Part shown: positions 18,163 to 44,879 of the stretch, in pieces
How the letters are laid out: every line of letters starts with the position of its first letter
How positions within the stretch are numbered: position 1 is the first letter of the stretch
NCBI GenBank assembly: GCA_036279475.1
Contig: DASUJB010000147.1
Location: 1,070 to 65,069, forward strand
DNA length: 64,000 nt
DNA from: Acidimicrobiales bacterium
GTDB taxonomy: Bacteria > Actinomycetota > Acidimicrobiia > Acidimicrobiales > VFJN01
Reading direction: 5' to 3'
Translations under genes and position numbers: made by a program
Notes under the pieces: model-generated
What the model was told of the DNA's origin: nothing
Database searches by the model: none
What the model saw: only the letters and a program-made list of their open reading frames with translations

Positions 18163-18178
18163 CAGCCGACGTCCTGTC

Positions 18179-26375: not shown

Positions 26376-26385
26376 GGGTTCCCTC

Positions 26386-26703: not shown

Positions 26704-27407
26704 GACGACGGCTCCTCTGCTGCCGGACGACCACCCGCTGCCTCGCCACCACGGCCGGCCGCCTGGCCGGCGGGGACCCGCTCGGCCCCGGCGGCCGCGC
26801 CGTGGCCGTCGCCCCCGGCGGCCCTGGCGGCTGCCGCCGCCATGCGCTCGGCGAGCTCTGCCGAGCGCTCCGCCTCGTCGGGCTCGACGATCTCGGGTTG
26901 CCGGGCCCGCCGGGCCAGCAGGACCGCACCCACGACGGCGATCACGAGCAGGACCGAGGTGATCTCGAAGGCGAAGAGGTAGTCGGTGAAGAGCGACCTC
27001 CCCAGCCGCTCGATGTCCGGCACGTCCTCGTCGACCTGACCGACGACGCCGGTGACCTCGTAGCCCGTGCTGGCCAGCGCTCCCACGATCAGCGCCAGCA
27101 CGCCGAGCGAGACGACGGCGGCCGCCACCCGCTGCCCCACCAGCGGCTCCACCCGCAGGTCGTCGGAGCGGTCCACGCCGAGCAGCATGATGACGAAGAG
27201 GAACAGGACGACGATCGCCCCGGCGTACACGATGACCTGGACCGCGGCCAGGAAGTTCGCCTCCTGGGCCACGAAGAGGACGGCGATCCCGAACAGCGTG
27301 CCCACGAGCGACAGCGCGGCGTGCACCGGGTTCTCGCTCGTGATCACGCCGAGGGCGCCGGCCAGGCAGGCGGCTCCGGCCACGACGAACACCACCAGCT
27401 CGACCAT
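26700..27407 (-). CDS. nuoJ: NADH-quinone oxidoreductase subunit J (operon 2), with an Ala/Gly-rich C-terminal tail
   Basis: 235 aa with an NuoJ-like TM core ([20 protein letters not shown]), followed by ~60 aa of low-complexity tail. Confidence 0.85.
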
Positions 27408-28138
27408 CAGCGGTCCCTCCGCGGGCCGTCGCCGTGGCCCTCGCCGCCCGCGGGCACGTCGGTCCGGCCGTGGCCGCCCGGCTCCCCGGGGTGGGCGAAG
27501 ATGACGTCGGCGTCGGCGGTGTCCACCTCGGCGTCGTCGACGGACTGGCCCTTCTCCGGAGGCCGGACACCGAAGCCCAGCTCACCGGTCCACTGGACAC
27601 GCCCCTCGTAGGCGGCGGCGCCCGCCGGCGCGGTGGCCCGCATCCACGCCGACGTGTGGGGGGCGACGTCGTCCACGTCGGACCAGTCCTCCCACGGCAA
27701 CTGCCGTGGGAGGCCGGCGTCGTCCACCACCAGCTCTGCCTTCGTGTAGATGGCGTCGTTGCGGTCGGTGAAGCTGAACTCGAACAGCTTGGTCTCGGTG
27801 ATGGCCTCCGTGGGGCACGCCTCCACGCAGAGGTCGCAGTGGATGCACCGGAGGTAGTTGATCTCGTAGATGTAGCCGTACCGCTCGCCGGGCGACACGG
27901 GCTCCTCGGGAGGGTTGTCGGCCCCCCGCACGTAGATGCAGCGGGCGGGGCACACCCCGGCGCACAGCTCGCAGCCGATGCACTTCTCCATGCCGTCCTC
28001 GTAGCGATTGAGGACGTGGCGGCCGTGCAGGCGGACGGGCTTGGGATGCTTCCCACCCTTGCCCTTGGTGTAGTCGCGGGTCACCCGCTCCTCGAAGAGC
28101 TTCTTGAAGGTGACACGGAACCCGTCGAGGTATCCCAT
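27407..28138 (-). CDS. nuoI: NADH-quinone oxidoreductase subunit I (operon 2), 2x[4Fe-4S], long C-terminal extension
   Basis: ORF 27407..28897 trimmed to the ATG at 28138, giving 243 aa. It overlaps the nuoH stop as ATGA. The motifs are [12 protein letters not shown] and [12 protein letters not shown]. Confidence 0.9.
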
Positions 28139-29379
28139 CAGGCGATCACTTCCTCCTCGGGCGACTCCCGGCGCCTGCGGGCGACCGCCACCGAGCCGCT
28201 GAGGGCGGCCCATCCCGCCGCCAGCACCACCAGCGAGACGACGACCACCACCGCGGTGTTCCAGCCCTCGTCCCGACCGACGTTGACCGCGGCCAGCAGC
28301 AGCAGCCAGGCGAGGGCCAGCGGGATCAACGTGGTCCAGCCGATCCGCATCAGCTGGTCGTAGCGGAAGCGGGGCAGGGTGGCCCGGATCCAGACGAACA
28401 CGAAGAGGAACACCAGGAGCTTCAACGTGAACCAGATCAGCCCCGACAGCCATCCGGGACCGAACCACAGGGGACCAGCGGGCCCTCCGAAGAACAGGGT
28501 GACGATGATGGCCGACATCGTGATCGTGTTCATGAACTCGGCCAGGTAGAAGAGCGCGAAGCGGAACGAGGAGTACTCGGTCTGGTAGCCCCCGACCAGC
28601 TCCTGCTCGGCCTCGACCAAGTCGAAGGGCGGGCGGTTGAGCTCGGCGGTCCCCGCGATCATGAAGAGGACGAACGGCACCACGCCCGTGGCGAGCAGGT
28701 TCCAGCGCGGGATGCCGATGGCGCCGAACAGCTCGTAGCCCTCCCCCGCCTGTGCTGCGACGATGTCGTGGGTCGACAGCGAGCCCGACAGCAGCACGAC
28801 CGCCACCACCGCCAGCCCCAGGGCGGCCTCGTAGCTGACCATCTGGGCCGAGCCGCGGACCGCCCCGAGCAGCGGCCACTTCGAGCCAGACGACCACCCG
28901 GCGAGCATCACCCCGTAGACGGCGATGGACGACATGGCCAGGACGAGCAGCACCCCGATCGGGGGATCGGCCAGCTGGAGGTAGGTGTCGTGGCCGAAGA
29001 GGCGGACGGAGCCGAACTTCTCGCCGTCGAAGCCCCCGGCGATGGGCACGACCGCGAACGTGACGAAGGCGGGCACGGCCGAGAGGAACGGGGCGAGGAT
29101 GAACACCCGGCGGTCGGCCCTGTCGGGGATCAGGTCCTCCTTCATGATGAGCTTCAGCCCGTCGGCCAGCGTCTGGAGGATGCCCCAGGGGCCGGCCTTG
29201 TTGGGTCCGACACGGTTCTGGAGGTCCGAGATGACCTTCCGCTCGAACCAGATCATCAGGATGACCGACGTGAGGAGCAGGCCGAAGGCGACGACGGCCT
29301 TGAGCAGGACGATCAGCACCTCGGCCAGGCCGATCCCCCCCTCGAGGAGGGGATCGAGCGCGAGAACGGCCGGGCTCAC
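28138..29379 (-). CDS. nuoH: NADH-quinone oxidoreductase subunit H (operon 2)
   Basis: 413-aa polytopic protein, with FDLVEAEQELVGGYQTEYSS. GTG start at 29379 preceded by GGGGAG. Confidence 0.9.
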   Translation of the reverse strand: MSPAVLALDPLLEGGIGLAEVLIVLLKAVVAFGLLLTSVILMIWFERKVISDLQNRVGPNKAGPWGILQTLADGLKLIMKEDLIPDRADRRVFILAPFLSAVPAFVTFAVVPIAGGFDGEKFGSVRLFGHDTYLQLADPPIGVLLVLAMSSIAVYGVMLAGWSSGSKWPLLGAVRGSAQMVSYEAALGLAVVAVVLLSGSLSTHDIVAAQAGEGYELFGAIGIPRWNLLATGVVPFVLFMIAGTAELNRPPFDLVEAEQELVGGYQTEYSSFRFALFYLAEFMNTITMSAIIVTLFFGGPAGPLWFGPGWLSGLIWFTLKLLVFLFVFVWIRATLPRFRYDQLMRIGWTTLIPLALAWLLLLAAVNVGRDEGWNTAVVVVVSLVVLAAGWAALSGSVAVARRRRESPEEEVIA

Positions 29380-29446
29380 CGTGGCCGGCTCCCCGCCAGC
29401 GGGTGACGACGGCCGGACCGGACCGCGGGTCGGGACGGGAGCCTGC

Positions 29447-32128: not shown

Positions 32129-33522
32129 GGCGTCGCACCTGCGGAGACGGTGGGAGGGGTGGACAGGTAGGCCTTGCCGTTCACCGGCACGGTGACCTCG
32201 GCCGCCCCCCCGCAGTAGGCGGCGAACTCGTCGCGGAAGCGCAGGATGGCCGAGGCGATGGGCGCCACCGCCGACGGCCCCAGCGGGCAGATCGTGGTCT
32301 GCTTGGGAGGCCAGGCGATGGAGGGGCTGATGTTGTCGCAGATGTCGAGGAGCTTGTTCACGTCGGCCGGGCGACCGTAGCCGTCGAGCATGCGGCGCAG
32401 GACCTTCTCCAGCCACGCCGTGCCCTCCCGGCACGGCGTGCACTTCCCGCACGACTCGTGGGCGAAGAAGCGCACGATCCGCCACGCCGCCTTGACCACG
32501 TCGGTGGTCTCGTCCATCACGACGATGGCCCCCGAGCCCAGCATCGATCCCGCCGCCCCCACGGCGCCCGCCTCCAACGGCAGGTCCAGGTGCTCCTCGA
32601 AGAACCACGCGGCCGACGCACCGCCGGGGATGAACGCCTTGAGCTCGTTGCCGTCCCGGATGCCGTCGGCGTAGCGCTCCCCGAAGATGATGTCGCGGAA
32701 CGTGGTGACGCCGAACTCCACCTCGAACACGCCGGGGTTGCGGACGTGACCGGACACCGCGAAGAGGCGGGTGCCCTTCGAGCTCTCCGCTCCCAGGTCG
32801 CCGAAGGCGGCACCGCCGTTCTCGACGATCCAGGGCAGGTTCGACAGCGTCTCGACGTTGTTGACCACCGTGGGCTGCATGTACAGGCCCTTGGCCGCCG
32901 GGAAGTACGGCGGCTTCAGGCGAGGCATCCCCCGGTTGCCCTCGAGCGACTCCAGCAGGGCGGTCTCCTCGCCCACGATGTAGGCGCCCGCCCCCCAGTG
33001 CAGCACGATGTCGACCGAGAAGTCGGTGCCGAGGATGTGATCGCCGACGAGGCCGGCGGCATAGGCGTCGTTGAGCGCGCCGGCCAGCCGCTCCTGCGCC
33101 AGCGCCATCTCGCCTCGCACGTACAGGAAGGCCTGGCTGGCGCCGATGGCGTAGCAGGCGATGAGCACGCCCTCGATGAGCTGGTGCGGATCGCGCTCCA
33201 TGAGCAGGCGGTCCTTGTAGGTGCCCGGCTCCGACTCGTCACCGTTCACCACGATGTAGCGGGGGAAGACGCCCGGCGGGCAGAAGCCCCACTTGACCCC
33301 CGCAGGGAAGCCCGCGCCGCCCCGACCGAGGAGGCTGGCCCCCTTGACCTGGTCGGCGACCTGCGCCGGGGTCATCTCGGTGACCGCCTTGGCCAGGGCG
33401 CGGTAGCCGCCGGTCTCCCGGTAGCGGTCGAGGGTGTAGCCGTCGGCGAGGTCCCAGCGCGAGGAGACGATGCGCGGCAGCTCTCGCGATCCACCGTCGG
33501 TGGTGGCGTCGACGTCCGTCAC
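32125..33522 (-). CDS. nuoF: NADH-quinone oxidoreductase subunit F (operon 2)
   Basis: ORF 32125..33906 trimmed to the GTG at 33522, giving 465 aa. It overlaps the nuoE stop as GTGA. It has GRGGAGFPAGVKWGF and ESCGKCTPCREG. Confidence 0.9.
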   Translation of the reverse strand: MTDVDATTDGGSRELPRIVSSRWDLADGYTLDRYRETGGYRALAKAVTEMTPAQVADQVKGASLLGRGGAGFPAGVKWGFCPPGVFPRYIVVNGDESEPGTYKDRLLMERDPHQLIEGVLIACYAIGASQAFLYVRGEMALAQERLAGALNDAYAAGLVGDHILGTDFSVDIVLHWGAGAYIVGEETALLESLEGNRGMPRLKPPYFPAAKGLYMQPTVVNNVETLSNLPWIVENGGAAFGDLGAESSKGTRLFAVSGHVRNPGVFEVEFGVTTFRDIIFGERYADGIRDGNELKAFIPGGASAAWFFEEHLDLPLEAGAVGAAGSMLGSGAIVVMDETTDVVKAAWRIVRFFAHESCGKCTPCREGTAWLEKVLRRMLDGYGRPADVNKLLDICDNISPSIAWPPKQTTICPLGPSAVAPIASAILRFRDEFAAYCGGAAEVTVPVNGKAYLSTPPTVSAGATP

Positions 33523-34145
33523 GAGGTGGCCCCTCCGGTCGTCCCCTCGGTGTTGCGGGCCAGCCACGGCGGCTCGACGTTGCGGTCGGGCGGCGCCACG
33601 CCGGCCCTGGTGTCGGGCAGCTGCTGGCGCACGCGGCTCAGGATGCCGTGCCGGGGGATGTCGTTGTCGAGGCGGCCGGCCCTCAGGTCGTCGACGAGCT
33701 CGTCGGCCTGGTCCGCGGTGACGCGATGGAAGTAGCGGTAGTTCACCTGCAGGCACGGGGCCTCGGTGCAGGCGGCGATGCACTCCACGTCCTCGAGGGT
33801 GAACCTGCCGTCGGGCGTGGTGTCGCCGGCGCGGATCCCGAGTCGCTGCTCCAGGTGGTGCAGCAGCTCCTCCCCGCCTCGCAACATGCACGAGATGTTC
33901 GTGCACACGTTCACCACGTAGTCGCCCACGGGCTCGAGCTTGAACATCTCGTAGAACGAGGCCGTGCCGAGCACCTCCGCCGGCGTGATCCCCAACAGCT
34001 CGGCGATGTGCTCCATCGCCTCCTCGGTGACGTGCCCGTCCTGCTCCTGGGCCAGGTGCAGCAGGGGGATCAGCGCCGACCTCGCCACCGGGTAGCGGGC
34101 GATCACGTCCTCGGCGACGGCGGCGTTCTCCGCGGTGAACCTCAC
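33519..34145 (-). CDS. nuoE: NADH-quinone oxidoreductase subunit E (operon 2)
   Basis: 208 aa with the thioredoxin-like 2Fe-2S motifs CTNISC and CIAACTEAPC. The GTG at 34145 overlaps the nuoD stop as GTGA. Confidence 0.9.
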   Translation of the reverse strand: MRFTAENAAVAEDVIARYPVARSALIPLLHLAQEQDGHVTEEAMEHIAELLGITPAEVLGTASFYEMFKLEPVGDYVVNVCTNISCMLRGGEELLHHLEQRLGIRAGDTTPDGRFTLEDVECIAACTEAPCLQVNYRYFHRVTADQADELVDDLRAGRLDNDIPRHGILSRVRQQLPDTRAGVAPPDRNVEPPWLARNTEGTTGGATS

Positions 34146-35470
34146 CGGTCGACCTCGCCCAGGATGGGGTCGACGGAGGAGATGACGGCCACCGCGTCGG
34201 CGATGAGGCCGCCCCGCAGCATGTGGGGGATGGCCTGCAGGTTCAGGAAGGACGGGGCCCGCACGTGCATCCGGTAGGGGACGCTGCTGCCGTCGCTCAC
34301 GATGTAGCAGCCGAGCTCTCCCCGGGGGCTCTCGACCGCTCGGTACACCTCGCCCTCCGGCACCTTGAACCCTTCCGTGAAGATCTTGAAGTGGTGGATG
34401 AGGGCCTCCATCGACTCGTCGATCCGACCGCGGGGTGGAGGCGTGACCTTGCGGTCCTGGATCCGGTAGTCGCCCGGCGGCATGCGGTCGAGGATCTGCC
34501 GCACGATCCCCATCGACTCTCGCACCTCCTCGAGGCGGATGGAGTACCGGTCGAAGCAGTCGCCGTAGCTGCCGACCACCACGCCGAAGTCGACCTCGTC
34601 GTAGAAGAGGTAGGGCTCGGCGCGCCGGAGGTCCCAGGGCACGCCGGTGGACCGCAGGACCGGTCCCGTGGCACCCAGGGCGATGGCCTCGTCGGCCGTG
34701 AGGACGCCCACGCCCTGCAACCGCTCACGCCAGATCGGCTGGCCGGTGAGCAGGACGTCGTACTCGTCGAGCCGGGGCTCGATCAGGTCGAGGACCCGGA
34801 GGGTGGCGTCCCGCCAGCCGTCGGGGAGGTCGGCGGCCACCCCGCCGACGCGGATGAAGTTGTGGTTCATCCGCGTCCCCGTGAACATCTCCAGCAGGCG
34901 CAGCGTCTCTTCGCGCTCCCGCCAGCCGTAGATCATCATCGACACCGCCCCGAGGTCCATGCCGTTGGTGGCGAGGTACAGCAGGTGGGACGAGATCCGG
35001 TTCAGCTCGGTCAGCAACATGCGGATCCACTGGGCCCGCGGGGGGATGTCCGCCTCGATGCCGAGGAGGGCCTCGGTGGCCTGGCAGAAGACGAGCTCGT
35101 TGAAGAGCGGGGACGCGTAGTCCATCCGCGTGGTGTTGGTGGGTCCTTGGAGGTACGTCAGCTTCTCGCCGGTCTTCTCCATGCCCGTGTGCAGGTAGCC
35201 GATCACCGGCTTGGTGCGCAGCACCTCCTCGCCCTGCAGCTCCAGCATCAGCCGCAGGACCCCGTGCGTCGACGGGTGCTGGGGGCCCATGTTGAGCAGC
35301 ATCGTCTGCTCGTCCGACTCCGGCTCCTGACCGGAGCGGGCGGCGACGTCGGCCTCGGACATGCGGAGGACCGAGCCGGCCTCGCGGAGCGGCTCGGCGA
35401 CGGCGGACCCCCTCGACGGCTCCAGCTCCTGGCTGCCCTCGTCGGTACGGAGGACATGGGTGGTGGTCAT
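34142..35470 (-). CDS. nuoD: NADH-quinone oxidoreductase subunit D (operon 2)
   Basis: 442 aa, with GPQHPSTHGVLR and HTGMEK, ending ILGEVDR. Confidence 0.9.
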   Translation of the reverse strand: MTTTHVLRTDEGSQELEPSRGSAVAEPLREAGSVLRMSEADVAARSGQEPESDEQTMLLNMGPQHPSTHGVLRLMLELQGEEVLRTKPVIGYLHTGMEKTGEKLTYLQGPTNTTRMDYASPLFNELVFCQATEALLGIEADIPPRAQWIRMLLTELNRISSHLLYLATNGMDLGAVSMMIYGWREREETLRLLEMFTGTRMNHNFIRVGGVAADLPDGWRDATLRVLDLIEPRLDEYDVLLTGQPIWRERLQGVGVLTADEAIALGATGPVLRSTGVPWDLRRAEPYLFYDEVDFGVVVGSYGDCFDRYSIRLEEVRESMGIVRQILDRMPPGDYRIQDRKVTPPPRGRIDESMEALIHHFKIFTEGFKVPEGEVYRAVESPRGELGCYIVSDGSSVPYRMHVRAPSFLNLQAIPHMLRGGLIADAVAVISSVDPILGEVDR

Positions 35471-35483
35471 GGGCAGTTGGACC

Positions 35484-36038
35484 TCACCGCTCGTTCCGGA
35501 CGCCCTTGAACTGCACGGGGATCTCCCCCACCGGCTGGTCCTTGCGGAGCGGGTACCCCTCCCAGTCCTCGGGCATGAGGATGCGGGTCATGTCGGGGTG
35601 GTCGGTGAAGGTGATGCCGAACATGTCGTACACCTCCCGCTCGAGCGCCTCGGCCGCCGGGTGCACGCCGAACAGGGACGGGCAGGTGGGATCGTCGGCC
35701 GGGATCTGGACCCGCAGCCGCAACCGCTCGGCGCGGGCGTGCGAGAGCAAGGCCACGACCACCTCGAAGCGCTCGGCGGACACCCCGGCCGGCAGGTCCC
35801 GCCGCCCCCGGAAGGCGACGTAGTCGACGGCGGTGATGTCGACGCACACCCGGAAGCCCTCGTCGTCCCGCAACCTCCGGACGAGGTCGACGAGCTCCTC
35901 CCGCCCCGGGTGCAGCACGACCTGGCCCCGGCTGCTGGACATGGGCACGCCGTCGCGGGTCTGCGGCGCGGTGGTGCCCCCCTCGTCGCCGGCGGCCTCG
36001 CCGGCCTCGTCCGCACCCCCCTGGGGCGACGACGCCAT
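35484..36038 (-). CDS. nuoC: NADH-quinone oxidoreductase subunit C (operon 2)
   Basis: ORF 35484..36143 trimmed to the ATG at 36038, giving 184 aa. The start lies 1 nt after the nuoB stop. It has EREVYDMFGITFTDHP and YPLRKD. Confidence 0.85.
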   Translation of the reverse strand: MASSPQGGADEAGEAAGDEGGTTAPQTRDGVPMSSSRGQVVLHPGREELVDLVRRLRDDEGFRVCVDITAVDYVAFRGRRDLPAGVSAERFEVVVALLSHARAERLRLRVQIPADDPTCPSLFGVHPAAEALEREVYDMFGITFTDHPDMTRILMPEDWEGYPLRKDQPVGEIPVQFKGVRNER

Positions 36039-36039
36039 C

Positions 36040-36615
36040 TCAGCGCTCCCTCTGGGCCAGCGCCGGCTCCACGATGCCGTCACGCTGCTCGATGACCAGC
36101 CCCGCGCCTCGGCTCCGCTCTCCCCGCCGTCGCAGGAGCTCACCCGAGGCGATGTTCTCGCGGAGCGTCTCGATGGCGTGGATCAGCGTCTCCGGCCCCG
36201 GGGGGCAACCGGGGGCGTACACGTCGACCGGGACGAACTCGTCGACTCCCTGGACGAGGGCGTAGTTGTTGAACATCCCGCCCGTGCTGGCGCATACGCC
36301 CATCGAGATGACCCACTTGGGCTCCATCATCTGGTCGTGGATCTGGCGCAGCACGGGGGCCATCTTCTGGGACACCCGCCCGGCGACGATCATGATGTCC
36401 GACTGCCGAGGCGACGCCCGGAACACCTCCATGCCGAAGCGGCCCAGGTCGTAGTGAGCTCCACCGGCGGCCATCATCTCGAGGGCGCAGCACGCCAGGC
36501 CGAAGGTGACCGGCCACGACGACCGGGAGCGGGACCACTGCACGAGGTCCTCCACCTTCCCGGTGATGAAGTTGTGGTCGAGGCCCTCCAGGCCCTTCGA
36601 CACGTCCCACCCCAT
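36040..36615 (-). CDS. nuoB: NADH-quinone oxidoreductase subunit B (operon 2)
   Basis: 191 aa, with [19 protein letters not shown] and PGCPP. Confidence 0.9.
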
Positions 36616-37127
36616 CAGGGCGCTCCCGTGGTCGTGGCGGTGGCCGGCTCGTCGGCCGGCTCGATCGCCTCCTCGACGTCGGGACGGCCCACGAGGCCGA
36701 CCCGCCGCACGGTGGTCCGGGTCGTGCGCTCCACCCCCACCATCGCCGAGCGCTGCGGCCGGGCCCGGTTGATCGGCCCCCAGTCGAGGACACCGTTGCT
36801 GATCAGGTACACCAGGCTCACGGCCACGAGCGCCGCGAAGACCAGGACCTCGACGAGCCCGAACGCACCGAGGTCCCGGTAGATCACCGCCCAGGGGTAG
36901 AGGAAGATGATCTCGATGTCGAACACGACGAAGATCATCGCCACCAGGTAGAAGTGCACCGGGAACCGCTCGGGGTTCTCACGGCGGGGGACGATGCCGG
37001 ACTCGTAGGGTGCCCGCTTCGCCGACGTCGAGCGGCGCGGGGCGAGCACCCTCGACATCAGGAGGCTGACGGCGGCGAAGGCCACGGCGAGCACGCCGAT
37101 GGCCACCACGGGGAGGTACTGGCCCAT
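36615..37127 (-). CDS. nuoA: NADH-quinone oxidoreductase subunit A (operon 2), with a ~50-aa C-terminal extension
   Basis: 170 aa, with YESGIVP and [24 protein letters not shown] at 37127 preceded by GGAAGGG. Confidence 0.9.
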
Positions 37128-37152
37128 CTACCGCCCTTCCTGACGCGTCATC

Positions 37153-38040
37153 TCAACCTCCTGCCGGCGCCGGTGCCGGCGCGTTCCGGTGCTGGGCGGC
37201 TCGCTGGTCTCGCCGGTGCAGCATGACGCACAGCAAACCGACCATCATCCCGGAACCGGTGGTGATGAGGGCGGCGGGGAGCCGCCGCTGCCCGATGTCA
37301 CGCTCGAGGATGACCGAGATGGTCTGTGCATCCTCGTCCGCCTCGGGCGGAGGGGCGGGCTGGCCGGGCTCGGGCTCCCCCTGCTCACGGGCCGGCTTCA
37401 GTTGGACGATCGCGTAGTGGGGCGGGTGGGTCACGCGCAGGGTGTTGGTGATGCGGTTCGTGACCCGGTCGATGACGGCGTCGCTCTCCCGCTCCGGCTT
37501 CCCGCCCGTCTCGAACGCGTAGGTGAACACCCGGCTGTTGGCGTCCTCCAGCCCGGGGACGGCCCCCTCGGCCAGGAGGGCGTCCACCGCCGTCTGCGCC
37601 TCGCCCCGGGAGGCGTCCGACGCGTCCAGCAGCTTCCAGTCACCCAGGTCGTCGTCATGCTCCTCGGTGACCCGCTCCAGCTCCTCCGGCGACAGCTCGT
37701 CGATCTTCGACGGCGGCGGGAGCGAGGACGGGTCCAGCTCGTGGGCCTCGTCCAGGGTGGAGTTGTCGAGGTCGCCGTAGACGATCTCGGTGACCTCCCA
37801 GGCCGGGGCCCGCCCGGCCGGCCCCTGCCCCGGCGGGTACAGCCACCACACCGTGCCGTGGATGGTGAGCCAGGCGAAGACGCCCGTCAGCGCCACCAGG
37901 AAGCCCAGCCGGTGGGCGAGGTTGGTGGCGAGCAGCAGGTACACCGAGCCCATCAGCACCAGGACGCCGGTGGCCACGGCCAGGATGCCGCGGATCTGCG
38001 GGTCCCAGGCGATGCCGGCCAGGGTGGTGACGATGTGCAC
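37153..38040 (-). CDS. membrane protein of unknown function, last gene of the Rieske/cyt b operon
   Basis: 295 aa. The GTG at 38040 lies 1 nt after the cytochrome c stop. It has three N-terminal TM helices, an acidic ~170-aa soluble region and one C-terminal TM helix. I recognise no domain. Confidence 0.6.
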   Translation of the reverse strand: MHIVTTLAGIAWDPQIRGILAVATGVLVLMGSVYLLLATNLAHRLGFLVALTGVFAWLTIHGTVWWLYPPGQGPAGRAPAWEVTEIVYGDLDNSTLDEAHELDPSSLPPPSKIDELSPEELERVTEEHDDDLGDWKLLDASDASRGEAQTAVDALLAEGAVPGLEDANSRVFTYAFETGGKPERESDAVIDRVTNRITNTLRVTHPPHYAIVQLKPAREQGEPEPGQPAPPPEADEDAQTISVILERDIGQRRLPAALITTGSGMMVGLLCVMLHRRDQRAAQHRNAPAPAPAGG

Positions 38041-38041
38041 G

Positions 38042-39283
38042 TCAGCCCTCTTCCTTCTCGAGCTGGGCCTGGATCTGGCTGACCGAGGGTGCCCCCTTGG
38101 GGTTGGGCGTCTCCGAGGCGGGCAGGGTGGCCTCGTAGCGGGCGATGGCCGCCACCATCTCCGGGGTCAGCATGCCGTCCCCCTCCACCTCCTCGGTGTT
38201 GGGGTTGTCGGCGAACCCGGGCATCCGGCCGCTGCCGATCCCGTTGTTGCCGTACGGCTCCCCGTCGATGCTGCCCTGGGACACGAAGCCCACCAGCTCC
38301 GTGTAGTCGGCGAACTGCCGGGGGATGAGGCCGCCCGTCAGGTTGGGGCCGAGGGCACCACTGCCATCGGGGAACCCGACGTACACGCCCTCGAGGGGGG
38401 CGTCCGGCGGCTGCACCACGTCCTCCCCCGTGCGGATGATCGACCAGCCCCGGGTGTGGCAACGGGCGCAGGCGAAGGCGCCACCCGAGGTCTCCAGGTT
38501 GAACAGCGTCCGGCCCACCTGGGGGTCGTCGTAGTCGAGGCCCTTGATGGCGGCGTCCATCTCGGCCTTGCTCGCTCCCTCGTCGACCAGCCCGAGCTGC
38601 TCGACCAAGCCTTCCTCGGCCTCACGCTGTGCCTGGGCCGGCGACAGCTGGATGGACTCGAGGTAGTCGACGAGGTTGCTGACCTGCTGCTCGTTGAGCG
38701 GGCCCTTGTTGACCGATGCGCCCCATCCCGCCATCGGCGAGAACGGGCGGCCGTAGTTGATGATGTACTCCACCTCGTCGCGCGAGAAGCGGAGCAGCAC
38801 CGTGTCGAGGGCGGGTGCCCGCCAGGTGACGGTGGCGACGAACTCCCCGTCAGCGTTGGTGACGGTGTACGGCGCCTGGCCGCCCGTGCCCTCGGGGCCG
38901 TGGCAGTTCTGGCACTGGGAGCCGGTGACGTACAGCTCCTCGCCCCGGCTGGCGAACACGCGCTCGAAGTTCTCGACGGCCCCCGACTGCCGGCCCGGCT
39001 CGGCCAGCCAGTAGAGCGGTAGCGCCACGGCGATGACGACGAGGAGCACGAGGGCCCACCGCAGCGTGCGGTTGAGCACGGTCGTCTCGAGCGTCTCGTC
39101 GTCGTGGTAGGGCCTCCGGTTGGGAGCGAGCTCGATCTCCGAGCCGGTCTCCGGGCGGCCGGCGCGGAGGTTTGCCACCACGTACGCCAACAACCCGAGG
39201 AGGAGCAGCACCACCAGCGTGGCGCCGATCGTCGTGACCGTGCTGGCTGCCAGCACGGCCGGCGAGATGGACAGGGGGCTCAT
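38042..39283 (-). CDS. membrane-anchored di-haem c-type cytochrome
   Basis: ORF 38042..39766 trimmed to the ATG at 39283, giving 413 aa. It overlaps the Rieske stop as ATGA. It has two N-terminal TM helices and two haem-c motifs, CQNCH and CARCH. Confidence 0.85.
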   Translation of the reverse strand: MSPLSISPAVLAASTVTTIGATLVVLLLLGLLAYVVANLRAGRPETGSEIELAPNRRPYHDDETLETTVLNRTLRWALVLLVVIAVALPLYWLAEPGRQSGAVENFERVFASRGEELYVTGSQCQNCHGPEGTGGQAPYTVTNADGEFVATVTWRAPALDTVLLRFSRDEVEYIINYGRPFSPMAGWGASVNKGPLNEQQVSNLVDYLESIQLSPAQAQREAEEGLVEQLGLVDEGASKAEMDAAIKGLDYDDPQVGRTLFNLETSGGAFACARCHTRGWSIIRTGEDVVQPPDAPLEGVYVGFPDGSGALGPNLTGGLIPRQFADYTELVGFVSQGSIDGEPYGNNGIGSGRMPGFADNPNTEEVEGDGMLTPEMVAAIARYEATLPASETPNPKGAPSVSQIQAQLEKEEG

Positions 39284-40146
39284 CAGTGGCCGCCGCCTCC
39301 AGAGACGCAGTGGGGGCCCTCGGCCTCTTGGCCGGTGGTGTTGGTACCGATCGGCGGGCCCTCGACGATGGTGCCCGTGTCGACCGTGAACTGGCCGCCG
39401 TTCACCTCCATGGCGAAGCGGTCCATGCCTCGCGGCGCCGGTCCGCCCTTCTTCTCGCCGACGCGGTTGTACTGCGAGCCGTGGCAGCCGCACTCGAACC
39501 ACTGCGAGGACAGGCACTGGGGCACCCGGCAGCCGAGGTGGGGGCACTTTTGGTACAGGGCCACCAGGCCCGCCTCCATGCCCGCCAGCTCTGGCGGGGA
39601 GTAGACGGACCTCGCCTTGTCCAGGGCGTCCGCCGGGTACCGGGTCACCCACATGCGGCCCTCCGGGTAGTAGGCGAACCCGTCGCCCTCGTCGATGGCG
39701 GCCTCGATGTCGGTGATCTTGCCGACGTTGATCTTGGTGCCGAACCCGCCCACCCCGCTGGGCCACAGGAAGGCGAGGACACCGGCACCGAAGCCGGAGA
39801 TCCCCAGGAGGAACGACACGACGATCGACCGGTTGAAGAACTGCCGCCGCGTCACCCCCAGCGTCTCCTCGTCCGGGGGCACCCAGGCGACGGGTGGCTC
39901 GCCCGCCCTCGCCGGTGCCGACGACTCGCGGCGGGCCACGACGGCGGCGCGCTCGACCTCGCGACCGCTGGCCGGCCGGTCCTCCTCCGACAGCTCGACG
40001 GGCCCGCGGTCACGGCGGGCCGTCTCGCTGGACAGGACGCCCCGGGCGGCGCCGGTGTCGCGCCGACGGGCCGAGGCCAGCAGCAGCACGCCGGCCAGGA
40101 CGACGAGGACGGGGACGGCGATGAGGATGATCGTCGTTGGACTCAT
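39283..40146 (-). CDS. Rieske [2Fe-2S] subunit of a Rieske/cytochrome b complex
   Basis: 287 aa with the cluster boxes CPHLGC and CGCHGS. It has an internal twin-arginine motif (TRRQFFNRS) before the second TM helix and an extra N-terminal TM helix. Confidence 0.9.
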   Translation of the reverse strand: MSPTTIILIAVPVLVVLAGVLLLASARRRDTGAARGVLSSETARRDRGPVELSEEDRPASGREVERAAVVARRESSAPARAGEPPVAWVPPDEETLGVTRRQFFNRSIVVSFLLGISGFGAGVLAFLWPSGVGGFGTKINVGKITDIEAAIDEGDGFAYYPEGRMWVTRYPADALDKARSVYSPPELAGMEAGLVALYQKCPHLGCRVPQCLSSQWFECGCHGSQYNRVGEKKGGPAPRGMDRFAMEVNGGQFTVDTGTIVEGPPIGTNTTGQEAEGPHCVSGGGGH

Positions 40147-40164: not shown

Positions 40165-40947
40165 TCAGAGCTCGAAGAACAGCCCGGCGTTCCAGGGGAA
40201 CACGAAGTTCTGGCCGGGACCCCGGAAGAACGAGCCGATCATCACGAGGGTCGCCCACGCCATCAGGAAGATGGTGAACAGCGAGATGGCGAACTTGCGG
40301 TCCTCGGGCTTGTTGGACGGGTTGCGATCCGTGTACGGCGTGAGGACCAGGCCGATCAGGCCGAAGCCCGGCAGCGTCACGCCCGCGACCATGGGGTGGA
40401 ACATGGTCAGCATCTCCTGCAGGCCGAGGAAGTACCACGGGGCCTTGGAGGGGTTCGGCGTCTCGTTGATGTTGGCCAGCGCCAGCAGGGGAGCGTTGAC
40501 GAACACCGAGAAGAGCAGGAGGAAGGCGGTGATGGCCAGCGCCGCCACGAACTCGATGCTGAGGAGGTGGGGCCAGACGTGGACCTTGTCCTGGGGGACC
40601 GCCTTCACGTCCTGGATCGACCCGGACTTGACCACGGTCAGGAGGCGCTGGGTGTGGCCGCCGGGACCGGTGGCCACCGGCGGGGCGGCGACGGCGGGAG
40701 CGGCCGTCGCCACGGCGGTGGCGGCGCCGCCACCGCCGGACGAGCTGGCGCCGCCGGCCTTGGCCGCCTTGGACCGCTCGAGGAGGTGGGCCGGGATGCG
40801 GCTCGCCGCCTCGCTCGTGGCGCCGGTCTCGCCCGCGCCGCCGGTCTCGCTGGCCGCCGGGGTGCCGGCGCCGCCGGCCTTGGCCGCCGCCGCCTTCTTG
40901 CGGGCCTCCTCGGCCCGCTTGCGGAGATGTTCGGGGATCTCGGTCAC
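40165..40947 (-). CDS. cytochrome b C-terminal domain protein (b6f subunit IV / PetD-like) with a ~110-aa N-terminal extension
   Basis: 260 aa, GTG start at 40947. The C-terminal 150 aa align by eye with subunit IV (VWPHLL..., NPSKAPWYFLGLQE). The N-terminus carries two IP(E/A)HL...AAKAGGA modules. Confidence 0.85.
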   Translation of the reverse strand: MTEIPEHLRKRAEEARKKAAAAKAGGAGTPAASETGGAGETGATSEAASRIPAHLLERSKAAKAGGASSSGGGGAATAVATAAPAVAAPPVATGPGGHTQRLLTVVKSGSIQDVKAVPQDKVHVWPHLLSIEFVAALAITAFLLLFSVFVNAPLLALANINETPNPSKAPWYFLGLQEMLTMFHPMVAGVTLPGFGLIGLVLTPYTDRNPSNKPEDRKFAISLFTIFLMAWATLVMIGSFFRGPGQNFVFPWNAGLFFEL

Positions 40948-40963: not shown

Positions 40964-41755
40964 CTACAGCGGCCCGGAGATGCCGCCGTCCTTGCGGACC
41001 CGCCAGAAGTGGACGGCCATGAAGATCACGATGACGAAGGGCAGCATCAGCACGTGGAGCACGTACCAGCGGAGGAGCGTGTCCGTGCCGATCTCGGCCC
41101 CGCCCAGCAGCACGAAGCGGACCTGGTTCCCGAACACGGGGGTGTACCCCATCATGTTGGTGCCCACGGTGACCGCCCACAGGGCGAGCTGGTCCCACGG
41201 CAGCAGGTAGCCGGTGAACGACAGCAGCAGGGTGAGCGTGAGGAGGACCACGCCGATCACCCAGTTGAACTCCCGCGGTGGCTTGTAGGCGCCGTGGTAG
41301 AAGACGCGTGCCATGTGCAGGAACACGGAGATCACCATCAGGTGCGCCGCCCACCTGTGCATGTTTCGCACCAGCAGCCCGAAGGTGACGGAGGTCTGCA
41401 GCGTGTAGATGTCGTCCCACGCCTGGGCAGCCGTGGGCCGGTAGAAGAACATCAGGAAGATGCCCGTGACCGTGAGCAGGATGAACAGGAAGAAGCTCAG
41501 GCCGCCCAGGCAGAGCGTGTAGCTCACCTTCACCGCGTGCCTCTTCACCTTCACCGGGTGGAGGTGGTAGAGGACGCTGTTCATGATCACGTAGGACCGG
41601 TTCCTGGGGCTGTCGTTGTAGCCCTTGCGGAAGATCGAGCCCGGACGGAAGATCGAGTTCCACGCCTGTGAGCCCTGGACCTGGTCGGGCAGGCCCTTGA
41701 CGAACTGTTGCGCCCGGTCCCTCAGCGGCGGCTTGGATTCCATGGTCTTGGCCAA
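40964..41755 (-). CDS. cytochrome b6-type protein (cytochrome b N-terminal four-helix domain)
   Basis: 263 aa. The TTG at 41755 lies 5 nt after GGAGA. Haem-b histidine pairs are present ([40 protein letters not shown]). The segment YTLCLGG...FFYRPT aligns with the b6 haem-ci cysteine segment. Confidence 0.9.
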
Positions 41756-41765: not shown

Positions 41766-42182
41766 CTATCCCAACCGCATGCCGTAGCCGTACCCGTGGC
41801 TGCTGGTGCGCTGGTGGGCGTCGCCGGTGGCGGCGGGGTCCCCCACCTTGCCGAGGATGATCACGCCCGTGGGGCACCGGTCGACGCACAGGGCGCAGCG
41901 GGTGCAGACGTCGTCGTCGATGGTGAAGATGACGTGGTCGGACGGATCGATGCCCGGCTGGTCGACGCCCAGCGCCTCGTCGACCGCGTCGGGCGACACC
42001 ATGTGGATGCACTTCCACGGGCAGATGTCGACGCAGCCCTCGCACATGATGCACTCGGACTGGTCGATGTGGATGAACTGCTTCGGCTTGACCGCCTTCG
42101 ACAGCCAGCCCGCGTCGACCTCCTGGAGGACGTAGTCGTCGCGGAACTCGGGCATCGGTGGGTTGGCATCGACCTTGGCCAT
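41766..42182 (-). CDS. soluble 2x[4Fe-4S] ferredoxin-domain protein inside the Rieske/cyt b operon
   Basis: ORF 41766..42455 trimmed to the ATG at 42182, which follows GAGGAAGGG, giving 138 aa. It has the motifs [12 protein letters not shown] and [12 protein letters not shown], and no TM helix or signal peptide. Confidence 0.8.
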
Positions 42183-42184
42183 GC

Positions 42185-42598
42185 CTATCCCTTCCTCACC
42201 AGGGGCCGGCCGTAGCGCGACGCGGGGATCTCGGCCGGCTTCTTCTTCCCCCGGTCGTTCCACACGGCCCACAGCGTGATGTGCAGCGTCAGCCCCACGC
42301 CGTAGATCACGACGGCGACGACGTCGGCGAGCGTCTTGTAGCTGATGGTGAGCGGCTGGTTGCCCGTCGGCTCGGCGATGAGGCGGTCGGACCGCCAGCC
42401 GAGCTGTCCCTCGGCCCATTGGAGCCACTGGTGGGGGATCACCCCGTACCACCACAGGAAGAGGAACATCGTCACCAGGGCGGCTGCCATCGCCTCGCCC
42501 CAGGACAGGGGGGCACCCGCCGGGCGGCGCCGGCCGTAGGCGAGGACACCGGCGACACCGCCGAAGCCCACAAGGATGGTGCAGATGAAGGCGACCAA
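42185..42598 (-). CDS. small three-TM membrane protein of unknown function, first gene of the Rieske/cyt b operon
   Basis: This is the frame of ORF 42185..42661. I prefer the TTG at 42598 (137 aa, GAGGAG upstream) because a Rex-like palindrome lies at 42615-42632. The GTG at 42661 is the alternative. The stop lies 2 nt before the ferredoxin ATG. Confidence 0.5.
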   Translation of the reverse strand: MVAFICTILVGFGGVAGVLAYGRRRPAGAPLSWGEAMAAALVTMFLFLWWYGVIPHQWLQWAEGQLGWRSDRLIAEPTGNQPLTISYKTLADVVAVVIYGVGLTLHITLWAVWNDRGKKKPAEIPASRYGRPLVRKG

Positions 42599-42614
42599 GG
42601 GACCTAGCGACTCC

Positions 42615-42632
42615 TCGTGAAATCGCTCACAT
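42615..42632. promoter_or_regulatory. candidate Rex operator (ROP-like palindrome) in front of the Rieske/cyt b-nuo transcription unit
   Basis: TCGTGAAATCGCTCACAT matches TTGTGAA-N4-TTCACAA at 11 of 14 specified positions by my alignment. A further TGTGAAC half-site lies on the minus strand at about 42692-42698. The region is the divergent intergenic between the operon and the cytochrome c gene. Confidence 0.4.
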
Positions 42633-42809
42633 TGAAGCAGCCGCCCATGGGGACCGGCCACCTCGGCAGGTTTAGCACGGGCCTTCCGAGGCGTTCACAT
42701 TGGCGCCGGGCACCGGGACGGGCCGCCGACCTGCACTTCCGGGAGCTTGGTGGCGACCGACGGCGCATGCGTAGAGTGGCCGATCGGAGAGCCGTCCGCG
42801 GAGGCAGCG

Positions 42810-43568
42810 TTGACCGAGATCCCCGAGCACCTTCTCAAGCGCTCCCGCGAGCGCCGCGCCGCCGTGGGCCGGGGCGGCGACACCCCCGAGGAGAGCTCGA
42901 GCGGGGCCGGCGGTCCGTCCCCGACGGCGCCCGCCCCCGGCGCCGGCGTGGCGCCCGCCGCCGTCCCACCCCCCGCCGTGGAGGAGGCGCCCGCCCCTCC
43001 GCCCCCCGAGCCCGCCTACGTGCAGGCGGCCCGTCGACGCAAGCGGGTGCCCTACTGGGCCACGGCGGCCCTCGCCATCCTGCCGCTGTGGGGCTACGTC
43101 TACGTGCGGACCCTCGAGCCCCCGCCGGCCGGCGAGGACGACCCGCTCACCCTGGGCGGCGAGGTGTACTCCGGCAACTGCGCCTCGTGCCACGGTGCCA
43201 CCGGTGGCGGGGGCGCCGGCGCCCAGCTCTCCGACGGCGAGGTGACGGCCAACTGGCCGGACTGGCGGGACCAGGCGGCATGGGTCCGCCTCGGCTCCGC
43301 CGACTACCCCGCGCCCACCTACGGCGCCCTCGACAGGCCCACCGGCGGCCTCGGGACCATGCCGGCCTGGCCCACGCTCACCGACCAGCAGATCGCCGAG
43401 GTCGTCCTGTACGAGCGGTCGCTGGCCGGTGACGAGGACGTGACCGAGGCCAACCCCGACTACGAGGAGCTCTACGCGGTGGCACGCGGAGAGACGACCC
43501 TCGCCGAGGTGGGCCTCGGTCCCCTGTCGGAGGCAGCCGGCGTGACCGAGGACCAGCTGGGCGGCTGA
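42810..43568 (+). CDS. membrane-anchored mono-haem class I c-type cytochrome
   Basis: ORF 42747..43568 trimmed to the TTG at 42810, which lies 5 nt after GGAGG (42800-42804), giving 252 aa. It has the N-terminal TEIPEHLLKRS motif, one TM helix (VPYWATAALAILPLWGYVYV) and the haem motif CASCH. Confidence 0.8.
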   Translation: MTEIPEHLLKRSRERRAAVGRGGDTPEESSSGAGGPSPTAPAPGAGVAPAAVPPPAVEEAPAPPPPEPAYVQAARRRKRVPYWATAALAILPLWGYVYVRTLEPPPAGEDDPLTLGGEVYSGNCASCHGATGGGGAGAQLSDGEVTANWPDWRDQAAWVRLGSADYPAPTYGALDRPTGGLGTMPAWPTLTDQQIAEVVLYERSLAGDEDVTEANPDYEELYAVARGETTLAEVGLGPLSEAAGVTEDQLGG

Positions 43569-43613: not shown

Positions 43614-44879
43614 ATGAGCCAGCCGCACCGGCACGACGTCCTTGTCATCGGCGGCGGGCCGGCCGGAGCGGCGGCCGGCTTCTGGCTGGCCAAGGCCGGC
43701 CGTGACGTCTGCGTCGTCGAGCGCAAGTCCTTCCCCCGGGACAAGACCTGCGGTGACGGGCTGACCCCCCGGGCCGTCCACCAGCTGCGCGCCATGGGGT
43801 TGGAGGCCGCCATCGCCGCCCGGCACCACCGCCACGACGGCCTGCGGGCCGTCGCCCACGGCATCACCCTCGAGCTGCCCTGGCCCGAGCACCCCGTGTT
43901 CCCCGACTACGGCTACGTGGTGCGCCGCCGCGACCTGGACCAGTTGGTGGCGGAGCACGCCGCCGGAGCGGGCGCCACCGTCCTCACCGCCACCGAGGCG
44001 GTGAGGCCACTGCTGCACGACGGCCTGCTGACGGGCGCGCTGGTGAAGCACGCGACCAGTGGCGACGTTCGCCCGCTGCGCGCCCGCTACGTCATCGTCG
44101 CCGACGGCTCGCTCTCGCGGTTCGGGCGGGCCCTGGGCGCGGCCCGGAACAAGGCCTACCCGCAGGGCATCGCCATCCGCACCTACTTCGAGAGCCCTCG
44201 CTCCACCGACCCCTGGATCGAGTCGTGCCTCGACGTCCGGGATCGGGACGGGGCGTCGATGCCCGGCTACGGCTGGATCTTCCCCTTGGGCGACGGCACC
44301 ATCAACGTGGGCATCGGCCTCCTGTCCACGTTCAAGGGCTACAAGGACGTCAACACCACCCACCTCATGGGGGAGTGGGCCGCCACCGCCCCCCGGCGCT
44401 GGGGCATCGACCCCGACGCCATGCTGGCCCCCCCCACCGGCGGCCGCCTCCCCATGGCCGGATCGGTGAACCCCAAGGCCGGGCCCAACTGGCTGCTCGT
44501 CGGGGACGCCGCCGGCTCGATCAACCCGTTCAACGGCGAGGGCATCGACTACGCCTACGAGACCGCTCACCTGGCGGCCGAGCTGGTGGACGAGGCGCTG
44601 GCCGCCGGTACCGGTGCCCCCCTCCAGCGCTACACCACCCTGCTCGACGAGGAGTACGGGCTCTACTTCAGGGTGGCCCGGAACTTCGCCCGCATCATCG
44701 GCCAACCGGCGCTGATGCGGGAGCTCACCCGCGTCGGCATGCGATCCCGCTCGCTCATGGAGTGGGTCCTGCGCATCATGGCCAACCTGCTGCGCGACGA
44801 CGAGCTGGGGCCGGCCGAGGCCGCCTACCGGTCCGTCGCCCGCCTCGCCCGGCTGGTGCCCGAGCCCGTCCCGTCCTGA
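43614..44879 (+). CDS. geranylgeranyl reductase family FAD-dependent oxidoreductase (MenJ-like menaquinone side-chain reductase candidate)
   Basis: 421 aa, with VLVIGGGPAGAAAG, KTCGDGLTP and GDAAGSINPFNGEGI. Confidence 0.8.
   Translation: MSQPHRHDVLVIGGGPAGAAAGFWLAKAGRDVCVVERKSFPRDKTCGDGLTPRAVHQLRAMGLEAAIAARHHRHDGLRAVAHGITLELPWPEHPVFPDYGYVVRRRDLDQLVAEHAAGAGATVLTATEAVRPLLHDGLLTGALVKHATSGDVRPLRARYVIVADGSLSRFGRALGAARNKAYPQGIAIRTYFESPRSTDPWIESCLDVRDRDGASMPGYGWIFPLGDGTINVGIGLLSTFKGYKDVNTTHLMGEWAATAPRRWGIDPDAMLAPPTGGRLPMAGSVNPKAGPNWLLVGDAAGSINPFNGEGIDYAYETAHLAAELVDEALAAGTGAPLQRYTTLLDEEYGLYFRVARNFARIIGQPALMRELTRVGMRSRSLMEWVLRIMANLLRDDELGPAEAAYRSVARLARLVPEPVPS

Follow-up and report, generated by a model that had tools for sequence, protein, structure and literature searches.

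The locus described here lies in a 64,000-nucleotide (nt) stretch of DNA from an Acidimicrobiales bacterium (contig DASUJB010000147.1; this whole stretch is hereafter called the window), which has a GC content of 72% and whose best genome matches, 94% identical at the protein level, belong to Acidimicrobiales. On its minus strand the window carries a module of seven genes that encodes a Rieske/cytochrome b complex together with a small ferredoxin-type protein, fdx138, the subject of this analysis. The genes of the module, listed in their order on that strand, are:

42185-42661, minus strand: mem158, a small membrane protein with three transmembrane (TM) helices and a basic C-terminal tail; first gene of the operon, recognized by synteny
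41766-42182, minus strand: fdx138, a predicted cytoplasmic 2x[4Fe-4S] ferredoxin-type protein of 138 amino acids (aa), supported by its open reading frame (ORF), its motifs, the Pfam Fer4 families and 2115 homologues
40964-41755, minus strand: cytochrome (cyt) b6, 263 aa, with four haem-ligand His residues and the haem ci motif YTLCLGG (Pfam Cytochrome_B)
40165-40947, minus strand: subunit IV (SUIV), 260 aa, with three TM helices, the Qo motif APWY and two EIPEHL+KR motifs (Pfam Cytochrom_B_C)
39283-40146, minus strand: Rieske [2Fe-2S] protein, 287 aa, with a TRRQFF stretch resembling a twin-arginine translocation signal, and with CPHLGC as box I and CGCHGSQY as box II (Pfam Rieske)
38042-39283, minus strand: membrane-anchored dihaem cyt c, 413 aa, with CQNCH and CARCH (Pfam Cytochrom_C and Cytochrome_CBB3)
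37153-38040, minus strand: mem295, a membrane protein, last gene of the module, at a conserved position

The ferredoxin, its gene and its partner complex

The fdx138 protein begins MAKVDANPP and contains nine cysteines, at positions 44, 47, 50, 54, 58, 93, 96, 99 and 103. Eight of these form the two cluster motifs, C44-x2-C-x2-C-x3-C54-P and C93-x2-C-x2-C-x3-C103-P, with P55 and P104 as the motif prolines, and the ninth, C58, is an extra cysteine that lies outside both motifs. Five Pfam families (Fer4, Fer4_7, Fer4_9, Fer4_10 and Fer4_21) scored above their cut-offs, with 42.1 bits for Fer4 (cut-off 21.1), 40.6 for Fer4_7 (cut-off 27) and 41.3 for Fer4_21 (cut-off 35). By both the motifs and the Pfam scores fdx138 is a bacterial-type 2x[4Fe-4S] domain protein (Fer4 clan), and cluster binding is predicted. 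The maximal hydropathy over 19 residues is 1.3, so that no TM helix is expected, and inspection of the sequence revealed no twin-arginine motif. The protein is acidic, with an isoelectric point (pI) of 4.6 and a net charge of -11. For a protein with neither a hydrophobic helix nor a twin-arginine motif, the cytoplasm is the sole reasonable predicted location. The ORF, hydropathy and motif checks agree with the original prediction, which had described a protein of 138 aa with two CxxCxxCxxxCP motifs and no TM helix or export signal.

Coupling along the operon is tight. The gene that precedes fdx138 ends AGG AAG GGA TAG, which is followed by GC and then by the ATG of fdx138, and the Shine-Dalgarno sequence of fdx138, AGGAAGGG, is located within that preceding gene. 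The fdx138 stop codon (TAG) is separated by 10 nt (GAGACCCCAG) from the TTG start of cyt b6, with GGAG ahead of that TTG, and further along the operon the ATG of the dihaem cyt c overlaps the Rieske stop codon (ATGA). The gaps of 2 nt before fdx138 and 10 nt before cyt b6 were thus read from the sequence exactly as originally stated. The longest ORF in the fdx138 frame extends to 42455 (229 aa); the ATG at 42182 was taken as the start because the homologues among the matches listed are nearly all 137-138 aa long. The start of mem158 may be the TTG at 42598 instead of the GTG at 42661.

An alignment of 18 family members left the eight cluster cysteines, P55, W56, C58, F86, D89, R95, R102 and P104 invariant, and the eight cluster cysteines were also invariant in an alignment of 62 sequences. 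The tails outside the clusters, residues 1-21 (85%) and 125-138 (84%), are conserved too, and the AlphaFold2 confidence is low there. Monomer models built with AlphaFold2 from the 18- and the 62-sequence alignments reached a mean predicted local distance difference test (pLDDT) score of 50.5 and 50.8, respectively, and from these low-confidence models the pattern of secondary structure alone, beta-alpha-beta twice, was used.

The partner of this ferredoxin in the operon is a split, b6f-type Rieske/cyt b complex, as judged from the four-His b6, the separate SUIV and the CxGG motif. The best PDB matches of the b6 protein were plant and cyanobacterial cyt b6 (E 2e-48); its His ligands align to those of spinach and Nostoc b6, and YTLCLGG aligns to Cys35, the haem ci/cn site. 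The motif YT[LF]CLGG was found in 87/87 related b6 sequences, from which haem attachment is predicted; the presence of this haem ci cysteine supports the original prediction, which had pointed to the n-side of the complex. A basic N-terminal extension of about 56 aa, located on the cytoplasmic side, is specific to this b6 family. Its motif W.SIFRPGS.F+KGY..S.R.R is nearly invariant, the distant loci described below included, and His64, His66 and His73, which fall within an invariant segment of the protein, are candidate counterparts of the His ligands of a "novel haem b" modelled in Kuenenia.

SUIV starts with a cytoplasmic, Ala/Gly-rich, low-complexity extension (residues 1 to about 120). Of the distant loci, L084 and L087 also encode a long Ala-rich SUIV extension, which is missing from L172, whose SUIV has 181 aa. 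The Qo motif region, NPSKAPWYFLGLQ, is present in the window SUIV and in 70/71 motif matches, and APWY itself in 71/71. Because of this Qo motif, the enzyme was placed in the APWY clade, or subfamily G, which is a motif-based assignment. Members of the APWY clade of Kao and Hunte include Planctomycetes, Deltaproteobacteria and Chloroflexi, together with a small number of deep Actinobacteria, one of which is an Acidimicrobidae strain (PMC4122944), and cyt b of this kind was termed subfamily G by Dibrova et al. (PMC5600118). In the Rieske protein the box II Ser and Tyr are present, and CxCHGSxY was found in 64/66 loci. These two residues have been linked to potentials above +200 mV, and +303 and +335 mV were measured for the Kuenenia Rieske proteins (PMC12954380).

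The b6 protein scored 310 bits with the NCBIfam model NF040969 (cytb_ExtP, of a selenite/tellurite reduction operon; cut-off 290), which matches from residue 57 onward only, and SUIV scored 49 bits with the Geobacter ExtQ model (NF040970; cut-off 150). The Geobacter extHIJKLMNOPQS cluster encodes a porin and multihaem cytochromes (PMC5877670); it is different in make-up from the window module and has no ferredoxin. With SUIV below the cut-off, and none of the other ext genes of that study present, an identity as ExtP/ExtQ was rejected as an over-call. Automatic annotation would nevertheless probably misname this b6 as ExtP, because its score exceeds the cut-off.

Conservation of the module in Acidimicrobiia and in distant lineages

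Relatives of fdx138 were sought with HMMER in an exhaustive search of 1.84 billion cluster representatives. The family is narrow: 51 representatives matched at E<1e-30, and many of these are fragmentary. In a separate search, 2115 homologous proteins were counted at E<=1e-3. A scan of one genome per species matched at least 600 stretches, 582 of which encode an fdx138 relative, and the best 80 of these matched stretches served as the set of close loci. Wherever one of the 80 has a specific taxonomic label, it is Acidimicrobiales or Acidimicrobiia, the others being labelled just Actinomycetota, Actinomycetes or "bacterium".

The gene order mem158, fdx, b6, SUIV, Rieske, cyt c, mem295 was the same in 80/80 of these loci, with mem158 directly upstream of the ferredoxin gene in every one, so that the ferredoxin is, genetically and by synteny, part of the Rieske/cyt b operon, as had been proposed from the single sequence. 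The identity to fdx138 was 83-94% across all 80. Median identities to the window proteins were 89% for b6 and 86% for fdx, as against 70% for SUIV, 62% for Rieske, 45% for mem158, 42% for the dihaem cyt c and 41% for mem295; from the values for fdx and b6, the ferredoxin is as constrained as the catalytic core. With 2115 homologues and a fixed position in 80/80 loci, fdx138 is a real and strongly constrained gene, far beyond what chance would give. The current database labels of its homologues, among the matches listed, are ferredoxin, "NuoI", "PreA" and "DUF362". Neither of the two membrane proteins matched a Pfam or NCBIfam model, and a profile of the mem158 family searched against the PDB yielded chance matches only.

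Outside this group, divergent full-length members of the family were found (P0168, P0184, P0223 and P0245, the last with its cluster mate P0291), which are 32-51% identical to fdx138 in the alignment; the source label of P0184 and P0223 is "Actinomycetota bacterium". In each of these four distant lineages the ferredoxin gene is located between the gene of a small protein of no known family (115-154 aa) and the cyt b6 gene, and where the contigs suffice the order continues with SUIV, Rieske, cyt c and a final membrane protein. The complete seven-gene module is present in three of the four (L084, L087 and L172). In L084 and L087 the identity to the window is 70% for b6, 61% for SUIV and 45-52% for fdx, and the last gene shows weak homology to mem295 (30-33% identical). 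The small first proteins are 14-27% identical to mem158 in the alignment, from which their membrane character was deduced, and blastp matched mem158 with the L087 protein only (29% over 72 aa). All seven module proteins of L084 and L087 are homologous to those of the window, mem158 weakly. No nuo genes were found beside the module in L084, L087 or L172, where it is flanked by cytochrome c maturation genes (CcmABCEFH in L084 and L172, ResB/CcsA-type in L087) and by a gene for haem-copper oxidase subunit I. Since the distant lineages keep the ferredoxin in the Rieske/cyt b6 module without nuo genes, it belongs to this module, and the adjoining nuo operon is a feature of Acidimicrobiales only. 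In L084, a gene for a Rex-like redox-sensing regulator follows the module.

The sole exception to this synteny is a truncated paralogue, P0255, of 116 aa, which lacks the N-terminal residues (about 35) and occurs in another Actinomycetota lineage (L174, 3278-3628; L175, 2165-2515). Its gene lies outside any Rieske/cyt b cluster, and a MenJ-like gene and nuoA-D, of the kind found in 14-subunit operons, are transcribed divergently from it. The MenJ-like neighbour in L174 is 44% identical to the MenJ-like protein of the window, and an extracytoplasmic function (ECF) sigma/anti-sigma pair follows the P0255 gene. The C-terminal tail of P0255 is like that of P0223, the gene of which adjoins a cyt b6 gene. 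Apparent fusions of mem158 with the ferredoxin (P0131, P0153 and P0147) were rejected as natural fusions: they contain frameshifted-looking stretches and are probably assembly or sequencing artefacts.

These data bear on the idea that fdx138 acts in the assembly or regulation of the complex, either by providing reductant for the covalent binding of haem ci at the cytoplasmic face or as an Fe-S redox/oxygen sensor that tunes the Qi site. Such a function would fit the presence of the haem ci cysteine in b6 together with the lack of a dedicated haem ci maturation homologue among the module genes, and also the cytochrome c maturation genes next to the module in the distant loci. However, the conservation of fdx138 equals that of b6 and is far above that of the accessory membrane proteins, which would be unusual for an assembly factor, and the homologous domains of anammox-type complexes, considered below, are part of a modelled electron path. 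We also know of nothing specific that links 2[4Fe-4S] proteins to haem ci attachment, and we regard this explanation as quite improbable.

The adjoining complex I operons

Besides the module, the window contains two complex I (nuo) operons and, divergent from the module, two genes on the plus strand:

42810-43568, plus strand: membrane-anchored monohaem cyt c, divergent, with the cytoplasmic N-terminal sequence TEIPEHLLKRS (Pfam Cytochrom_C)
43614-44879, plus strand: MenJ-like protein of the geranylgeranyl-reductase family; its gene adjoins that of the divergent monohaem cyt c
21029-37127, minus strand: 14-subunit nuo operon with nuoE, nuoF and nuoG and its own nuoI (Pfam: nuoA, E, F, G, I and J)
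8110-18613: nuo operon without nuoE, nuoF and nuoG, with its own NuoI at 14207-14761

Only 25 nt (37128-37152) separate the module from nuoA of the 14-subunit operon, and with so short a gap the genes of complexes III and I may share a transcript in Acidimicrobiales. NuoI of the 14-subunit operon is encoded at about 27407-28141. The operon without nuoE, nuoF and nuoG (the EFG-less operon) lies about 2.4 kb past the nuoN end of the 14-subunit operon (18613 versus 21029) and about 18.5 kb from the module. Two ORFs are located between the nuo operons, both on the minus strand (18653-19645, 330 aa; 19642-20871, 409 aa), with coding-like GC at third codon positions and no Pfam match.

The proximity of the module to nuoA, and the fact that NuoI and NdhI are among the sequence relatives of fdx138, could suggest that fdx138 belongs to the neighbouring 14-subunit complex I as a displaced or extra NuoI-type subunit, or that it bridges complexes I and III in a supercomplex. 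Against this, fdx138 scored only 41.2 bits with the NuoI model TIGR01971 (cut-off 113) and 34.4 bits with the ndhI model TIGR00403 (cut-off 302), its gene is not located between nuoH and nuoJ, both nuo operons already encode a NuoI, and the adjacency to nuo genes is missing in the distant lineages that keep the ferredoxin. The identity as NuoI/NdhI was therefore rejected, and a NuoI-type or bridging role in complex I is very improbable.

The original prediction had also offered fdx138 as the missing electron donor of the EFG-less complex I. This proposal is not supported: fdx138 is 25% identical, over 73 aa, to the NuoI of that operon, which like the other nuo operon has a NuoI of its own, the nuo operon that abuts the module is the one that contains nuoE, nuoF and nuoG, and three distant lineages keep the ferredoxin beside the Rieske/cyt b6 genes without any nuo genes nearby. 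A broader form of the same idea is that fdx138 is a free soluble ferredoxin, merely co-expressed with complex III, which serves other enzymes; candidate clients are the EFG-less complex I, 2-oxoacid:ferredoxin oxidoreductases, sulfite reductase, IspG/H and P450s. The protein is indeed small and acidic and has no membrane anchor, the window does contain the EFG-less nuo operon, relatives within Acidimicrobiia reportedly use a 2-oxoglutarate:ferredoxin oxidoreductase (PMC12008989), and the truncated paralogue, divergent to MenJ-like and nuoA-D genes, offers a faint point in favour of complex I. Nevertheless, the ferredoxin gene is found in the Rieske/cyt b6 module in all 80 close loci and in the four distant lineages, and neither the distant modules that have no nuo genes near them nor the nuo operons of the window, with nuoE, nuoF and nuoG in the abutting one and NuoI in both, fit a complex I client. 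In addition, fdx138 has long, conserved tails at both ends and an insert between its clusters, much as bound subunits do, and the closest relatives outside the family are domains tethered to Rieske/cyt b-linked enzymes. A free soluble ferredoxin is therefore an unlikely explanation in our view, if a less improbable one than an assembly factor.

The divergent genes complete the picture of the locus. The monohaem cyt c, whose mechanical ORF begins at 42747, is kept in divergent orientation in most Acidimicrobiales loci. The MenJ-like protein scored 334 bits with the model of the menaquinone reductase MenJ, under the equivalog cut-off of 700 bits, and its presence nearby fits a menaquinone organism. 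A motif, (T)E[IV]PEHL[LR][KQ]R[AS], occurs three times in the window (about 40935 and 40794 on the minus strand and about 42822 on the plus strand), in cytoplasm-facing N-terminal parts: at the SUIV N-terminus, about 47 residues further in SUIV, and where the divergent monohaem cyt c probably begins. It was present two to three times in 64/91 loci (80 of the 91 being Acidimicrobiales), with its positions unchanged in the loci inspected, and was not found in the distant loci L084 and L087. This may be a shared docking motif.

Relatives in named systems and a candidate role in complex III

To our knowledge, canonical bc1 and b6f complexes have no cytoplasmic-side Fe-S protein, and the anammox-type complexes are the only described exceptions. 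These complexes, encoded by Kuste4569-4574 and Kustd1480-1485 of Kuenenia, have cytoplasmic NAD(P) oxidoreductase subunits, the evidence for which comes from gene clusters, co-migration and AlphaFold3 models and the function of which is unproven (PMC12954380). The best single-domain matches of fdx138 beyond its own family were the C-terminal ends of two GltD-like proteins of about 600 aa, P0260 and P0267. The former is 37% identical over residues 1-112 of fdx138 (alignment of 115 aa, 75 bits), the segment before the first cluster included, and the latter 34%. Both consist of an N-terminal Fer4_20 domain, an FAD/NAD(P) domain and a C-terminal dicluster domain, with four Fe-S sites, as described likewise for the NAD(P) oxidoreductase subunits of Kuenenia (PMC12954380). 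A Rieske gene directly follows that of P0260. The P0267 gene is preceded by the genes of a b6 (65% identical to the window b6) and of a 5-TM APWY SUIV, and followed by those of multihaem cytochromes c, an arrangement that matches the Kustd1480-1485 architecture of the same study. As a control, 80 generic GltD-like metagenome loci were analyzed: none (0/80) had Rieske/cyt b genes, and 3/80 matched fdx138 (28-30% identity, residues 35-109, E about 1e-5). Two metagenome scans revealed no further anammox-type clusters. The anammox analogy drawn in the original prediction is in this way borne out beyond analogy, the closest out-of-family relatives of fdx138 being domains encoded in anammox-type Rieske/cyt b clusters.

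The likeness to the anammox-type complexes extends to the split b6/SUIV, the CxGG and APWY motifs, the Ser-containing, high-potential-type Rieske box II and the cytoplasmic 2[4Fe-4S] module. Over residues 1-113, fdx138 is 34-37% identical to the anammox-type C-terminal domains, a comparison made with the metagenomic loci L090 and L091 and not with the Kuenenia proteins. When these domains were added to the alignment, the eight cluster cysteines, P55, C58, D89, R95, R102 and P104 were still invariant, C58, D89, R95, R102 and P104 being shared in this way by both groups; R95 and R102 adjoin cluster 2. On the other hand, fdx138 has neither the FAD/NAD(P) domain nor Fer4_20, and has two clusters as opposed to four. 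No Pyr_redox gene was found in the module. The window SUIV has three TM helices whereas the anammox-type protein has five, the cyt c is dihaem and not hexa- or octahaem, and the window module has two additional small membrane proteins. The hosts also differ, being Acidimicrobiia and other Actinomycetota here and anammox Planctomycetes for the Kuenenia type.

Other known systems resemble the module in part. The b6f complex of chloroplasts and cyanobacteria has the most similar b6, with Cys35 and the four His aligned, and shares the idea of a low-potential Fe-S donor at the n-side, since a ferredoxin/FNR route to haem cn has been proposed for cyclic electron flow. It has, however, no operon-encoded n-side Fe-S subunit, whereas the window operon has one; conversely, the window complex has no cytochrome f and no small Pet subunits, its b6 carries the extra 56-residue N-terminal extension, and its quinone is presumably menaquinone. 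QcrCAB (bcc) of Mycobacterium and Corynebacterium is from the same phylum, has the same role of menaquinol:cytochrome c oxidoreductase and a membrane-anchored dihaem cyt c. In that complex, however, cyt b is fused into a single QcrB protein of about 540 aa, which lacks the haem ci motif (the window b6 scored 124 bits against the QcrB family cut-off of 500), and there was no ferredoxin among the chains of the solved supercomplexes found in PDB searches. Those searches, carried out with the module proteins, also yielded no solved structure of a Rieske/cyt b complex in which an Fe-S subunit sits on the cytoplasmic side.

The nearest sequences with solved structures, FwdF, MvhB, NdhI/NuoI and PscB, are bound wire modules and not free ferredoxins. 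NuoI/NdhI (TYKY) and PsaC/PscB are significant sequence relatives and, like fdx138, combine a 2[4Fe-4S] domain with an inter-motif insertion and terminal extensions, but fdx138 falls below the NuoI/NdhI family cut-offs and has a different genomic context. The best matches of all were FwdF (profile E 4e-27) and MvhB (4e-23) of methanogens, and MvhB shares with fdx138 the CPW motif and a long inter-cluster insert. Both are chains of 350-410 aa made of many modules, so that their scores are partly summed over repeats, and there is no functional or contextual link.

On balance, and with moderate confidence, we read fdx138 as a stand-alone, peripheral, cytoplasmic-side Fe-S subunit of the b6-type menaquinol:cytochrome c oxidoreductase of these Actinomycetota. 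It is most economically seen as the stand-alone counterpart of the C-terminal 2[4Fe-4S] domain that, in anammox-type complexes, links the n-side of cyt b6 to an FAD/NAD(P) module, and as a minimal form of the anammox-type cytoplasmic module; the sequence data suggest an additional gate for electrons at the inner face of the complex. Indirect support comes from a conservation that matches that of b6, from the conserved tails, from the invariant basic b6 extension that occurs together with fdx138, and from the translational coupling of the operon. The analysis shows that the gene is real, with its cofactor motifs, its strict co-location, its conservation and its homology to the Rieske/cyt b-linked domains, whereas binding, docking site and electron flow are inferred. 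The computed charges are -10 for the fdx138 core, +8 for the b6 extension and +6 for the mem158 C-tail. The acidic core of fdx138 would dock on a basic n-side surface formed by the N-terminal extension of b6, to which the mem158 C-tail and the N-terminal extension of SUIV may add, and the conserved tails of fdx138 would be used for this docking. The two clusters would then be within tunnelling distance of haems ci and bn, and single electrons could be exchanged between the low-potential chain and a partner in the cytoplasm.

Electrons might run in either direction through such a gate; we lean slightly towards exit and regard entry as almost equally likely. The exit of the Qo-bifurcated low-potential electron via fdx138 is energetically plausible, given the Rieske Ser/Tyr signature and the presumed menaquinone, as argued for the anammox enzymes: if the Rieske centre is too high in potential for menaquinol, the b chain must be very low in potential and could reduce a cytoplasmic acceptor via Fe-S clusters (PMC12954380). 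The entry of electrons from reduced ferredoxin at the Qi/haem ci site via fdx138 is also plausible, since Acidimicrobiia relatives are reported to use a 2-oxoglutarate:ferredoxin oxidoreductase (PMC12008989). Taken further, the exit route would make the main complex III of aerobic Acidimicrobiia an oxygen-driven ferredoxin-reducing machine, a proposal to which we assign a low probability. One electron of menaquinol would then pass from Qo to the high-potential Rieske protein, cytochrome c and the oxidase, and the other, at about -300 mV or lower, would go down the b/ci chain to the bound 2[4Fe-4S] protein and on to cytoplasmic metabolism.

Several points weigh against fdx138 being a subunit of complex III. 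Operon membership by itself is no proof of a stable subunit, and no natural fusion of fdx138 to a membrane subunit was found in the representative library. The truncated paralogue P0255, since it lives outside Rieske/cyt b clusters, indicates that the fdx138 fold can serve elsewhere. Both monomer models of fdx138 have a pLDDT of about 50, and the anammox docking used for comparison is an AlphaFold3 model only (PMC12954380). The type of quinone and the Rieske potential are inferred from sequence, and why an aerobic heterotroph would need a low-potential electron driven by bifurcation is not obvious.

A literature search of incomplete coverage gave no description of actinobacterial Rieske/cyt b operons that include a stand-alone ferredoxin, nor of a ferredoxin-only module in the respiratory complex III of Acidimicrobiia. 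The NAD(P)/Fe-S cytoplasmic subunits of subfamily G are known already; the ferredoxin-only, minimal version is apparently new. At present its homologues are labelled generically, and the accompanying b6 would be mislabelled ExtP. The apparent standard complex III of a very widespread bacterial class would contain a minimal, 15-kDa cytoplasmic Fe-S module. Genes for fdx138 relatives occur in at least 582 genomes at the species level, sampled from soil, fresh water, the sea and activated sludge, and some members are cultured. If fdx138 binds as proposed, Qo-bifurcation or ferredoxin-level exchange through haem ci, and with it the purpose of haem ci, would become testable in a tractable organism, with a bearing on the long-debated ferredoxin:quinone route through b6f. 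If the bifurcating mechanism is also true, the Acidimicrobiia would offer, in cultivable organisms, a minimal form of a mechanism that has been proposed but never demonstrated for the anammox complexes.

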